NCBI RefSeq assembly: GCF_003334335.1
Contig: NZ_QOWQ01000041.1
Strand: one strand, 5' to 3'
Origin: Escherichia coli
Lineage (GTDB): Bacteria > Pseudomonadota > Gammaproteobacteria > Enterobacterales > Enterobacteriaceae
DNA length: 39,438 bases
Positions 12,876-31,753 of the stretch are shown here, in pieces. Below the pieces are notes generated by a model. The model did no database searches and was not told the origin of the DNA. It saw nothing but the letters and a program-made list of their open reading frames with translations. Both the position numbers and the translations under genes were made by a program. Numbering within the stretch: position 1 is the first letter of the stretch; every line of letters begins with the position of its first letter.

Positions 12876-12902
12876 CAAATTGCGTTCCACGGATGGAAGA
12901 CT

Positions 12903-14798
12903 ATGGCAGGGAAGTTTCGCTGCATTTTGCTGTTGATAGCAGGGCTGTTTGTATCATCTCTAAGTTATGCAGAAAACACGGAGATCCCTTCTTATGAAGA
13001 AGGGATCTCGCTCTTTGATGTTGAAGCCACTCTGCAACCAGATGGGGTGCTCGACATCAAAGAAAATATTCATTTTCAGGCGCGAAATCAGCAGATTAAG
13101 CACGGCTTTTATCGTGATTTACCACGACTATGGATGCAGCCTGATGGGGACGCTGCACTGCTGAACTATCATATTGTTGGCGTCACCCGTGATGGTATTC
13201 CTGAACCCTGGCATCTTGACTGGCATATCGGGTTAATGAGTATTGTCGTGGGCGATAAACAACGTTTCTTGCCTCAAGGCGACTATCATTATCAAATTCA
13301 TTATCAGGTTAAAAATGCTTTCCTGCGTGAGGGGGATTCTGATCTGCTAATCTGGAACGTGACCGGTAACCACTGGCCGTTTGAAATTTATAAGACCCGT
13401 TTTTCTCTCCAGTTCTCTAATATTGCGGGTAATCCATTTAGCGAAATCGATCTCTTTACCGGAGAAGAGGGCGACACATATCGTAATGGCCGCATCCTTG
13501 AGGACGGAAGAATTGAATCCCGCGATCCGTTTTATCGTGAAGATTTCACGGTCCTCTACCGCTGGCCTCACGCTTTACTTAGCAATGCCTCGGCTCCGCA
13601 AACGACGAATATTTTCAGCCATCTTCTTTTACCCTCCACGTCATCGTTGTTAATTTGGTTTCCGTGTCTGTTCCTGGTTTGTGGATGGTTATATCTCTGG
13701 AAGCGCAGGCCGCAATTTACGCCGGTAGATGTGATTGAAACCGATGTCATTCCGCCAGATTACACGCCCGGCATGTTACGTCTCGATGCGAAGCTAGTTT
13801 ACGACGATAAAGGTTTTTGTGCCGATATCGTAAATCTGATTGTGAAAGGAAAAATTCATCTGGAAGATCAGTCTGACAAGAACCAGCAAATCCTGATTCG
13901 TGTTAATGAAGGCGCGACCAGAAATAATGCGGTATTACTGCCCGCAGAGCAGTTATTACTGGAAGCGTTATTTCGTAAAGGCGATAAGGTCGTTCTTACG
14001 GGGAGACGCAACAGAGTCTTACGCAGGGCATTTTTACGGATGCAGAAATTTTATCTGCCGCGTAAAAAGTCTTCGTTTTACCGGTCTGATACTTTTTTGC
14101 AATGGGGTGGACTGGCAATATTGGCGGTCATTCTTTACGGTAACTTGAGTCCTGTAGGCTGGGCAGGAATGAGTCTGGTGGGCGATATGTTTATTATGAT
14201 CTGCTGGATTATTCCTTTTTTATTTTGTTCCCTTGAGCTTTTGTTTGCCCGCGATGATGACAAGCCTTGCGTTAATCGTGTAATCATCACTTTGTTTTTA
14301 CCACTGATTTGTTCAGGCGTGGCCTTTTATTCTCTCTACATCAATGTCGGAGATGTATTCTTTTACTGGTATATGCCAGCGGGTTATTTTACCGCTGTTT
14401 GCCTGACCGGTTATCTCACTGGCATGGGGTATATTTTTCTGCCAAAGTTTACCCAAACTGGACAGCAACGTTATGCCCACGGTGAAGCTATCGTTAACTA
14501 TCTTGCGCGTAAAGAGGCAGCAACACACAGTGGACGTCGGCGGAAAGGGGAAACACGGAAACTGGATTACGCGTTGCTAGGTTGGGCTATATCGGCAAAT
14601 TTGGGGAGGGAATGGGCGTTACGCATTGCCCCTTCGCTTTCTTCGGCGATTCGCGCTCCAGAGATTGCCCGTAACGGCGTTTTATTCTCATTACAGACGC
14701 ACCTAAGTTGCGGGGCCAATACCAGTTTGTTGGGGCGAAGTTATTCCGGTGGTGGTGCTGGCGGCGGCGCGGGTGGCGGAGGCGGTGGTGGCTGGTAA
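12903..14798 (+). CDS. yciQ: DUF2207-family inner membrane protein YciQ
   Basis: 631 aa; signal peptide, multiple hydrophobic segments, Gly-rich C-terminal tail. Confidence 0.88.
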   Translation: MAGKFRCILLLIAGLFVSSLSYAENTEIPSYEEGISLFDVEATLQPDGVLDIKENIHFQARNQQIKHGFYRDLPRLWMQPDGDAALLNYHIVGVTRDGIPEPWHLDWHIGLMSIVVGDKQRFLPQGDYHYQIHYQVKNAFLREGDSDLLIWNVTGNHWPFEIYKTRFSLQFSNIAGNPFSEIDLFTGEEGDTYRNGRILEDGRIESRDPFYREDFTVLYRWPHALLSNASAPQTTNIFSHLLLPSTSSLLIWFPCLFLVCGWLYLWKRRPQFTPVDVIETDVIPPDYTPGMLRLDAKLVYDDKGFCADIVNLIVKGKIHLEDQSDKNQQILIRVNEGATRNNAVLLPAEQLLLEALFRKGDKVVLTGRRNRVLRRAFLRMQKFYLPRKKSSFYRSDTFLQWGGLAILAVILYGNLSPVGWAGMSLVGDMFIMICWIIPFLFCSLELLFARDDDKPCVNRVIITLFLPLICSGVAFYSLYINVGDVFFYWYMPAGYFTAVCLTGYLTGMGYIFLPKFTQTGQQRYAHGEAIVNYLARKEAATHSGRRRKGETRKLDYALLGWAISANLGREWALRIAPSLSSAIRAPEIARNGVLFSLQTHLSCGANTSLLGRSYSGGGAGGGAGGGGGGGW

Positions 14799-15008
14799 TT
14801 AAGCTGATGTTAATCGAAACAAGCTTTAACCATAAAGATAGTGTAGTATGTTGCGCCTCAAAGCCAGGCCGATAAACGTCGAGTCGTTTACTTAAGGCCT
14901 GAAGAGTTCAAACAGACTTTACTATCAGTGAGTCAGATGTAAGTTCTGACTCACTGTTGCACAAAAGCATATCAGACGCCTGGGAAGGCGACACCAAAAG
15001 GAAGCTCT

Positions 15009-15884
15009 ATGAGCGAAAAGCTACAGAAAGTGCTGGCGCGTGCCGGCCACGGTTCTCGCCGTGAAATCGAATCTATTATTGAAGCCGGTCGTGTGAGTGT
15101 TGATGGCAAAATTGCTAAACTCGGCGATCGTGTTGAAGTTACCCCTGGATTGAAAATCCGTATCGATGGTCACCTGATTTCGGTACGTGAGTCCGCTGAA
15201 CAAATTTGTCGCGTTCTGGCCTATTACAAACCGGAAGGTGAGTTGTGTACCCGTAACGATCCGGAAGGACGTCCAACGGTGTTTGACCGTCTGCCAAAAC
15301 TGCGTGGCGCACGCTGGATTGCCGTGGGTCGCTTGGACGTTAATACCTGTGGTCTGCTGCTGTTCACCACCGATGGTGAACTGGCAAACCGTTTAATGCA
15401 CCCAAGCCGTGAAGTTGAACGTGAATATGCCGTGCGTGTATTTGGTCAGGTTGACGACGCGAAACTGCGTGATTTGAGTCGTGGCGTGCAGTTGGAAGAT
15501 GGTCCGGCAGCTTTTAAAACCATCAAGTTCAGCGGCGGCGAAGGGATCAACCAGTGGTACAACGTGACTCTGACCGAAGGCCGTAACCGTGAAGTTCGTC
15601 GTCTGTGGGAAGCGGTTGGTGTGCAGGTGAGCCGCCTGATCCGTGTTCGTTACGGTGATATCCCACTGCCAAAAGGTCTGCCACGCGGTGGCTGGACGGA
15701 GCTGGACCTCGCCCAGACTAACTATCTGCGCGAACTGGTGGAGCTACCGCCAGAAACCAGCTCTAAAGTCGCTGTAGAAAAAGACCGTCGTCGCATGAAG
15801 GCGAATCAGATTCGTCGTGCGGTGAAACGTCACAGTCAGGTGAGCGGCGGTCGTCGTTCTGGCGGACGTAATAATAACGGTTAA
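15009..15884 (+). CDS. rluB: 23S rRNA pseudouridine(2605) synthase
   Basis: 291 aa, [24 protein letters not shown]... S4 domain plus pseudouridine synthase core, basic C-terminal tail. Confidence 0.95.
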
Positions 15885-15892
15885 TCAAAGTA

Positions 15893-15919
15893 TGCCGGAC
15901 GTCATATCCGGCATTTTTA
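15893..15919 (+). terminator. rluB intrinsic terminator
   Basis: Stem atgccgga / tccggcat followed by TTTTT. Confidence 0.75.
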
Positions 15920-15923
15920 CAGA

Positions 15924-16514
15924 TTAATAATCGATCCCTATCTGCGCTTTTACACCGGCATCAAACGCATGTTTGACGGGGCGTAATTCACTTACCGTAT
16001 CTGCCAGTTCAAGAATATCCCGATGACAACCACGACCCGTGATAATCACCGTCTGTTGATGTGGACGTTCATTTAACGCCTGCACCACTTCTTCCAGTGG
16101 CAAATAGTCATACGCCACCATATACGTCAGTTCATCAAGCAAAACCATATCCAGTGAGGAATCAGCAAGCATCCGCTTTGCATGTTGCCAGACTTCGCGG
16201 CAGGCGGCGGTATCAGACTCGCGGTTTTGTGTATCCCAGGTAAAGCCCGTTGCCATCACCTGAAACTCAACGCCATGTGGCTCCAGCAGATTGCGTTCGC
16301 CATTAGGCCAGGTGCCTTTAATAAACTGCACGACGCCTACTTTTTTTCCGTGACCAACTGCGCGTGTTGCCGTACCAAATGCCGCGGTGGTTTTGCCTTT
16401 TCCATTGCCGGTAAAGACGATGATAATACCGCGTTCATCCTGGGCCTGGGCCACACGAGCATCTACTTTTTCTTTCACTCGCTGCTGACGCTGTTGGTAG
16501 CGTTCATCACTCAT
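15924..16514 (-). CDS. btuR: Cob(I)yrinic acid a,c-diamide adenosyltransferase
   Basis: 196 aa; P-loop GNGKGKTT; recognised BtuR/CobA. Confidence 0.93.
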   Translation of the reverse strand: MSDERYQQRQQRVKEKVDARVAQAQDERGIIIVFTGNGKGKTTAAFGTATRAVGHGKKVGVVQFIKGTWPNGERNLLEPHGVEFQVMATGFTWDTQNRESDTAACREVWQHAKRMLADSSLDMVLLDELTYMVAYDYLPLEEVVQALNERPHQQTVIITGRGCHRDILELADTVSELRPVKHAFDAGVKAQIGIDY

Positions 16515-26668: not shown

Positions 26669-26705
26669 ATTTGCTTGCCGTTTATTTTGCTTCCGGCAAG
26701 CAAAT
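26669..26705. terminator. Bidirectional terminator between convergent acnA and ribA
   Basis: 12-bp stem atttgcttgccg / cggcaagcaaat around a T-rich loop. Confidence 0.65.
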
Positions 26706-31141: not shown

Positions 31142-31148
31142 CATAAAA

Positions 31149-31170
31149 AGCCACGGATATATCCGTGGCT
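31149..31170. terminator. Bidirectional terminator between yciH and osmB
   Basis: Palindrome agccacggatatatccgtggct with T-runs on both strands. Confidence 0.8.
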
Positions 31171-31266
31171 TTCGAATATTTTACTGTGCGTATTATTCAG
31201 TTATTTCGTACTGAACAGAATCAAGCGTATTATAATTGCGAGTCGATAATCGACATTTATTTACGA

Positions 31267-31485: not shown

Positions 31486-31753
31486 AATACTCTCTCCTGA
31501 ATTTATGATTCACGGAAGTAAGCTCTCTATAACTATAATAGCTAAGAATAAGCCTGGTGAAATTATTCCGTGAAATCTGCTCGCGCGCAGGGTTATATCA
31601 CGCAGGTGATAATGACTTCCTGTTATATCGCTGATAATAATTTTATATCTTGAGAGTGTTAATAACAGGTAAATAGTCTTAATTATCAACCAGGAATCAT
31701 CTTAGAGCGGATGATTTGCCAAACTGCAAATCATCCGTAGAGAAGGGAAATGG

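Follow-up and report, generated by a model that had tools for sequence, protein, structure and literature searches.

A palindrome upstream of Escherichia coli rluB is very probably a transcribed leader stem-loop derived from an integrase island

The spacer between yciQ and rluB of Escherichia coli contains a perfect palindrome, CAGTGAGTCAGA-tgtaagt-TCTGACTCACTG, which raises the question of what it does in front of rluB and whether it belongs to this gene at all. In the window, i.e. the whole 39,438-nucleotide stretch of DNA that was analyzed, yciQ occupies positions 12903-14798 and rluB positions 15009-15884, and both gene names given in a sequence-only reading of the locus are correct. That reading had described a perfect 12-bp stem with a 7-nt loop about 50 nt upstream of rluB, lacking a U-tract on either strand and therefore not an obvious intrinsic terminator, and had offered an RNA processing site, a leader structure controlling rluB translation or a protein-binding palindrome as explanations. 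The geometry is borne out: the palindrome spans 14926-14956 on the plus strand, with the 5' arm at 14926-14937 (+70 to +81 of the rluB mRNA, as placed by sequence, fold and mapped start site), the 7-nt loop TGTAAGT at 14938-14944 and the 3' arm at 14945-14956. Its arms are 100% complementary, 52 nt separate the end of the right arm from the rluB ATG at 15009, and the 3' flanks, TTGCACAAAAGC on the plus and ATAGTAAAG on the minus strand, contain no U-tract.

As RNA the palindrome is predicted to fold with -20.1 kcal/mol (z = -5.1 versus shuffles), its 12 bp including six G-C pairs. First-order Markov copies of the window contained on average 0.05 perfect 12-bp stems with a 3-20-nt loop per 39 kb, and any perfect 12-bp stem at all appeared in 14 of 300 such simulations; the palindrome is thus far beyond chance. 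It is found in 3976 of 5426 complete E. coli genomes as a single-copy element (median one, maximum two places per genome), and no second copy exists in the window even if up to two mismatches per arm are allowed. A REP/BIME or other dispersed repeat is ruled out by the single copy per genome. No feature is annotated at the palindrome in RefSeq E. coli genomes, and an Rfam 15 covariance-model search of 14000-16000 returned only chance-level matches, at E values up to 10. Other strong inverted repeats of the window lie at 12974-13016, 26669-26705, 31708-31737 and 31147-31172; they comprise a 20-nt repeat with 85% complementarity within the 5' region of yciQ, two perfect stems of 12 bp each, and one 13-bp repeat that is perfect and has no spacer.

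This part of the window shows no difference from E. coli K-12 MG1655 (coordinate offset 1311843, checked). Supplementary Data 1 of the SMRT-Cappable-seq study lists a transcript comprising only b1269 (rluB), running from 1326700 to 1327761 and supported by 37 reads at its start and 18 at its end (PMC6131387). The start (NC_000913.3 1326700) corresponds to position 14857 on the plus strand of the window, which places the palindrome within the rluB leader, at +70 to +100 of a 152-nt 5' UTR. Eight nucleotides upstream of the start site lies the -10 hexamer TAGTAT (14844-14849, plus strand), followed by a GC-rich discriminator; the -35 region is poor, with no recognizable hexamer, and consensus promoter scans of the spacer gave no match in K-12 or in strain EC93, described below. 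Cap-selected long reads pass from the start site through to the rluB terminator at 1327761, keeping in mind that SMRT-Cappable-seq favors long molecules and short attenuated RNAs would escape detection. Term-seq in three growth conditions places the rluB 3' end at the same position, and neither the yciQ-rluB spacer nor the rluB 5' UTR has a 3' end in its tables (PMC7815308), although its thresholds could overlook a weak 3' end of a poorly expressed gene. A second SMRT-Cappable-seq start assigned to rluB maps to about 14454 (K-12 1326297), inside the yciQ coding region, and two Rho-dependent termination regions (Adams et al.) fall nearby, one at 1326939 on the minus strand, antisense to rluB (window about 15096), and one at 1325258 on the plus strand, internal to yciQ (window about 13415).

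Folding of the leader is predicted to give a series of hairpins that form independently of one another (z = -4.5 for the whole leader). Upstream of the palindrome lies a hairpin CAGGCC...GGCCTG with TAAACG..CGTTTA nested inside (14865-14901, plus strand); in a divergent Escherichia locus, L005, its inner 21 nt are missing and the outer stem is retained with a G·U pair. The ribosome-binding site GGAAG and the ATG (15000-15011, plus strand) are predicted to be unpaired with the palindrome and free.

The distribution of the palindrome across genomes argues against an old association with rluB. The 61 nt around it are identical in 2635 E. coli genomes and differ by 1-3 nt in 1342, and about 27% of the complete genomes lack it. 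The loop varies within the species (tgtCagt in strain DETEC-P666), and in phylogroup-B2-type strains such as IHE3034 the 3' arm reads ...CATTG, giving a G·U pair where ...CACTG of K-12 gives G-C; the B2-type state is also that of the islands described below. In about 940 E. coli genomes, which have no yciQ, the match to the window begins only at 14975. Downstream of yciO they carry, in this order, a 66-nt leader whose hairpin is a different one (strain S19-141 is an example), the hairpin GACGCCTG[T/G]GAAGGCGAC, the ribosome-binding site and rluB. Overall, yciQ is present in about 73% of complete E. coli genomes and the 66-nt native leader takes its place in about 17%. A survey of 80 species-representative loci, ranging from Escherichia albertii through to Yersinia, Serratia, Erwinia and Pantoea, did not turn up a single yciQ in front of rluB. 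A homolog of the palindrome hairpin is present in some of these loci, and in many other Enterobacterales the leader at this place is a different one. Homologs of YciQ are patchily distributed, the nearest one outside E. coli being 56% identical and found in a Klebsiella species, likewise between yciO and rluB; its 3' flank consists of the relic block, then a hairpin whose sequence is a new one (ACATGGCGTTAGA...TAGCGTCATGT), and finally a T-run and the core sequence discussed below. The C-terminal tail of YciQ is glycine-only (GGGAGGGAGGGGGGGW, window 14720-14798), and the Klebsiella homolog has a glycine-rich run followed by W.

Judged from this distribution, the palindrome is not ancestral rluB leader sequence. 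It is dispensable for rluB, as about 27% of E. coli genomes and many other Enterobacterales lack it, and it can hardly be a native rluB control element. The suggested leader structure controlling rluB translation keeps its place, in that the palindrome does lie in the rluB leader, but hardly its function: it is probably no translational switch, since the ribosome-binding site is predicted to be unpaired and the element is dispensable in many genomes.

What is conserved in front of rluB is the neighboring 18-mer GACGCCTG[T/G]GAAGGCGAC (window 14975-14992), which forms the hairpin CGCCU-GNRA-AGGCG 16 nt upstream of the rluB ATG. All 83 loci compared, which extend from Escherichia to Yersinia, Serratia and Pantoea, share it with no changes other than T/G at the second tetraloop base, both variants conforming to GNRA, and one C-to-G exchange in Tatumella (L065). 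Upstream of the 18-mer the sequence is highly variable, with at least five alternative arrangements across species. Its first 16 bp (14975-14990, plus strand) serve as attachment core for at least two types of integrase. The same core can be read as a GNRA-class tetraloop hairpin, CGCCU[GGGA]AGGCG, just 5' of the rluB ribosome-binding site and as an inverted repeat, CGCC-TGTGAA-GGCG, that is duplicated at both ends of the islands. No Rfam match was obtained for this hairpin. It loosely resembles helix 93 of 23S rRNA (AGAACGUC-GUGA-GACAGUU), the substrate of RluB; autoregulation via RluB is conceivable, and such a mimic may serve islands as a safe landing site. A similar likeness of the palindrome itself to helix 93 (GUGAGUCAG versus GUGAGACAG, plus AGUUC) was dropped as it is not conserved in homologs.

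Several loci contain a hairpin homologous to the palindrome, CAG[T/C/A]GAGTTA...TAACTC[A/G]TTG, followed by TTTTTGAAAGTATACCA and then by the 18-mer. In Kosakonia, Erwinia and some E. coli an ORF of about 550 amino acids adjoins this hairpin, divergent from rluB, and has a C-terminal tyrosine-recombinase domain (Pfam Phage_integrase, E = 4.5e-6; weak XerA/XerC matches). Proteins of this kind are named DUF3258 or tyrosine-type integrase in the sources and are widespread in Enterobacterales. In E. coli EC93, yciO and rluB are separated by an intact 8.4-kb island that contains genes for an integrase, a resolvase, DUF4238 and YagK/YfjJ and lacks yciQ. It is bounded by a 16-bp direct repeat, GACGCCTGTGAAGGCG. 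Read in the direction of rluB, its far end shows the native 66-nt leader intact, then GACGCCTGTGAAGGCG|CATAGG..., and its near end shows the integrase start, TGTGTGACA repeats and atatCAGTTAGTTAAgttgttattgatgcTAACTCGTTGtttttgaaagtatacca|GACGCCTGTGAAGGCGACACT..ATG. Flanked in this way by the repeat, the island identifies the repeat as the attachment core and the palindrome homolog as island DNA. On the rluB side the order is integrase 5' end, TGTGTGACA repeats, palindrome homolog, T-run, 17 bp and core, i.e. the homolog lies 17 bp from the core in the integrase-proximal arm and occurs at the integrase end only.

Islands of this family insert at the 16-bp core GACGCCTGKGAAGGCG, which directly precedes the ribosome-binding site of rluB. 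In a decayed island of Kosakonia sacchari the left junction fits the core, though only GACGC is left at that end. A second integrase type, sharing 56% identity, occupies this core in the reverse arrangement, co-oriented with rluB, and in one E. coli strain it directly follows a K-12-type relic (...palindrome...GACGCCTGGGAAGGC|CATAAATC...int), which, as read from this junction, is a tandem accretion at a hotspot. In two islands of the second type (L087 3700-4010; L086 3700-4010) the former rluB promoter and the palindrome now face the integrase gene. Repeats of the GTGTGACAGC type are present on both island arms (L088 20120-20170 and 28290-28310; L027 about 2140-2170). The TGTGTGACA repeats overlap integrase codons 5-13, encoding the residues SHKLSHT, so that these putative arm-type binding sites overlap the integrase's own coding start. 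A 12-7-12 layout is also that of the lox and FRT recombinase cores, but a core role of the palindrome is ruled out by the island-flanking repeat being the neighboring 16-bp hairpin; the palindrome homolog is absent from one of the two ends, and in intact islands 11-15 bp separate its arms. A literature search found no published description of islands at rluB.

The K-12 spacer can be aligned with these islands. Homology of the window with yciQ-less E. coli restarts at the core, which marks the right boundary of the island-derived DNA. The island-derived segment spans 12876-14974 on the plus strand, comprising yciQ as cargo, an integrase remnant, leader hairpins and the palindrome, and its counterpart in yciQ-less E. 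coli is the 66-nt native leader. The remnant, at 14824-14857 on the minus strand, corresponds to 5' coding sequence of a DUF3258-type tyrosine integrase, its minus strand reading GATYYTIF where the integrase has GRTYYTNF. It aligns with the antisense of the codons for RGRTYYTNF at a local score of 32 versus 15.5 ± 2.25 for shuffled sequences (0 of 2000 reaching it), and this alignment runs collinear with hairpin and core in the island loci. The remnant is too short for tblastn, which gave no significant match of the integrase to the window, and was detected by DNA-level alignment only. A Yersinia relic reads VRDRTYYTIFTVRDSKR where the integrase has IRGRTYYTNFRLNDSTR, as translated in this analysis. 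Direct repeats flanking the K-12 yciQ segment were looked for and none were found; the left end of the island and the native 66-nt leader have evidently been deleted, with yciQ now directly following yciO. By this comparison, what K-12 and about 73% of E. coli carry is an island decayed to yciQ, an integrase remnant of about 35 nt and a leader. The palindrome is thus very probably a stem-loop of the transcribed rluB 5' UTR that originates from the integrase-proximal arm of an island with a DUF3258 integrase.

The rluB promoter very probably has the same source. The conserved block cgtgTAGTATgtgcgccc and the 12-nt TGTGTGACA repeats were initially read as native rluB promoter and leader, the repeats being taken for protein-binding sites; an ORF scan identified them as antisense of the first integrase codons. 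The promoter assignment of the cgtgTAGTATgtgcgccc block survived owing to the mapped start site, but its native origin did not. The TAGTAT hexamer, with the K-12 start just downstream, is the antisense of the integrase codons Thr-Tyr-Tyr. The Thr codon, which gives the last T of the -10 hexamer, is always ACA in 13 type-1 integrase genes while neighboring synonymous sites vary; in two type-2 genes that do not lie upstream of rluB it is ACC or ACT, yielding TAGTAG or TAATAA. In two loci (L039 and L040) the promoter block is retained and the hairpin lost. From the K-12 start site and homology we infer that an inserting island severs the link between rluB and its native promoter and provides a substitute from its own end. 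This would explain why the promoter block outlives the rest of the decaying integrase gene. In intact islands the same promoter would yield an RNA antisense to the integrase start codon.

We then asked whether the palindrome is maintained as an RNA helix or as a DNA site. The covariation set consisted of 22 homologous hairpins with arms hand-chosen from conserved sequence anchors and loops replaced; the hairpins of unrelated sequence at the same place in L052, L068 and the native Enterobacter leaders were left out, as at least that of L068 may simply end the upstream gene. Standard pairing was found in 84% of the cells as compared to 28-42% with the partners slid by 1-3 columns, and 7 of the 12 pairs show changes on both sides. 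The covariation score of 0.277 (versus 0.193 ± 0.022) was not reached in any of 500 shuffles, these counts being inflated by the relatedness of the 22 hairpins through descent and horizontal transfer. Pair 3 is G·U in 16, A-U in three and G-C in two hairpins, and pair 4 occurs as U-A, U·G and C-G. Wobble pairs exist on the rluB strand only, and the plus strand folds better than the minus strand in most homologs. The L005 arms CAGTGGGGCAGg/TCTGCCCCACTG differ from K-12 by two double compensatory changes; in total 9 of 31 hairpin positions differ between the two, both being fully paired and flanked by almost identical sequence. The covariation test that the sequence-only reading had proposed therefore comes out for an RNA helix on the rluB strand, and the aligned sequences favor a helix maintained in the transcribed RNA.

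Taken together, we propose with a probability of roughly 0.6 that the palindrome is a transcribed stem-loop in the rluB leader, inherited from the arm of an island and most likely structural in role. An island inserting at the core would cut rluB off from its native promoter, and the island end would act as surrogate promoter and leader. After loss of the integrase the hairpin would stay as part of the leader, with compensatory changes preserving its pairing; the loop would shorten from 11-15 nt, as in the island homologs, to 7 nt, the stem would become perfect and the downstream T-run would erode, so that the K-12 hairpin would no longer end transcripts. As one of several independent leader hairpins it could contribute insulation, stability or protection from Rho, without switching rluB translation. 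Any present role is probably modest; that the structure helps to keep the long untranslated leader folded is a tentative suggestion. Against this explanation stands that many genomes manage without the hairpin, any function of it being dispensable.

As the main rival explanation, the palindrome might instead be an inert relic of an accessory protein-binding site in the island DNA, located between the core and arm-type repeats for the integrase and bound by integration host factor (IHF), as a bending site, or by a dimeric excision or regulatory protein, that was perfected by template switching, which we consider unlikely. Template switching within quasi-palindromes can produce concerted changes of both arms and perfect stems without selection. 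The IHF consensus is WATCARNNNNTTR. Intact islands match it perfectly in the left arm and its flank (TATCAGTGAGTTA or AATCAGTGAGTTA), and with a single mismatch in the right arm read on the opposite strand (AAACAAYGAGTTA). A perfect IHF-consensus site (AATCAATGAATTG) exists on the far arm of EC93 too, at a similar distance from the core, with GTGTGACAGC repeats beyond the sites on both arms. In addition, intact islands keep a constant arm-to-arm spacing of about 35 bp and vary in their loop sequence, and their RNA hairpin is weak (-6.7 kcal/mol in EC93; -5.9 kcal/mol, z = -0.3, for a fragment lacking the last bases of the 3' arm). The palindrome is thus likely to have had a past at the DNA level as a putative IHF site in the islands, and the protein-binding palindrome of the sequence-only reading would to this extent be partly right for its history. 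The K-12 copy TATCAGTGAGTCA, however, departs from the consensus at one position (TC instead of TT), the region is transcribed, and G·U and U·G pairs are tolerated across homologs on the rluB strand only. Moreover, old relics without integrase (Yersinia, Klebsiella L095, Pseudocitrobacter L030 and Escherichia L005) keep or rebuild the pairing with different sequences, which is not expected of an unconstrained relic. Relic hairpins are often the stronger ones (-20.1 kcal/mol in K-12, -25.2 in L005 and about -17 in Yersinia).

A conditional attenuator in the leader, where pausing or partial termination tunes rluB and releases a leader RNA of about 100 nt, is improbable. Most island and relic homologs do have a T-run right after the stem (TTGTTTTTGAAAG), the native leaders of Enterobacter and Lelliottia carry a canonical hairpin with T5 at the same place, and by homology the island leader RNA overlaps the integrase start codon in antisense. 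Nonetheless, the K-12 stem is followed by only UU and has no 3' end in the three growth conditions, terminator scans at the palindrome were negative in K-12 and in EC93, and the island versions, with loops of 11-15 nt and AT-rich stems, would be poor terminators. The unrelated hairpins of L052, L068 and the native Enterobacter leaders had at first suggested a conserved attenuator, a reading that was dropped in view of the possible terminator role of at least the L068 hairpin. The palindrome is not a terminator, as the T-run of its relatives has eroded and no 3' ends are mapped, in line with the missing U-tract and with long reads continuing to the rluB terminator; here the initial assessment was right. 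A stabilizing or processing site at the 3' end of the yciV-yciO-yciQ transcript, apart from rluB control, is very improbable: the palindrome follows the stop codon of yciQ at a distance of 128 nt and on the same strand, yciVOQ is catalogued as a single operon and stable hairpins can block 3' exonucleases, but the Term-seq tables hold no yciQ-associated 3' end, a promoter and start site separate yciQ from the hairpin, and the hairpin is older than the position of yciQ, adjoining the integrase and not the cargo in islands.

A more far-reaching version of the leader stem-loop reading is speculative and rather doubtful. The palindrome would be the end-hairpin of an island leader RNA antisense to the integrase, the islands bringing along an antisense-encoded rluB promoter that was domesticated in K-12, and the core hairpin would possibly be a mimic of the RluB substrate. 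If true, the island leader RNA could couple the stability of the island to rluB transcription.

For the palindrome itself the outcome is mostly clarifying, in that it is a leader hairpin of foreign origin and neither a native rluB switch nor a terminator. More notable than the palindrome are the integration hotspot, the surrogate rluB promoter and the invariant hairpin at the core. The standard K-12 promoter and 5' UTR of rluB are very probably island-derived, a clear case of the end of a mobile element having been co-opted for a housekeeping rRNA-modification gene, and the yciO-rluB junction emerges as a recurrent integration hotspot in Enterobacterales, centered on an 18-nt leader hairpin whose conservation exceeds that of many coding sequences. 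Strain and metabolic engineering makes wide use of yciQ as a 'neutral' integration locus, and users should be aware that only about 50 nt lie between its stop codon and the beginning of the rluB promoter.

The island arrangement resembles a lambda-type attachment site, with the palindrome homolog located between the 16-bp core and TGTGTGACA repeats adjoining a tyrosine integrase gene, and with candidate IHF sites at similar core distances on both arms. It differs in that the island repeats overlap integrase codons 5-13, and the K-12 copy in that it has no integrase, a degraded IHF match, is transcribed and shows covariation of the RNA type. SXT/R391 elements insert at the 5' end of prfC and replace the promoter and 5' end of this gene, likewise a mobile element 5' of a translation-related gene whose own end substitutes for the displaced promoter; at rluB, however, the crossover takes place in a 5' UTR hairpin and leaves the coding sequence untouched, the integrase belongs to a different family and the surrogate promoter lies antisense inside the integrase gene. 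With intrinsic terminators and attenuators the palindrome shares a stable sense-strand stem in a 5' UTR and, in homologs of other genera, a T-run after the stem, but the K-12 element has neither U-tract nor mapped 3' end and read-through transcripts are documented. Like template-switched quasi-palindromes it is a perfect 12-bp repeat from an imperfect ancestor with concerted two-arm changes between lineages, a process that leaves the G·U asymmetry in favor of the transcribed strand and the rebuilding of the helix in distant relics unexplained. The palindrome works most like an ordinary 5' UTR hairpin, and historically it is part of the arm of a lambda-type attachment site.
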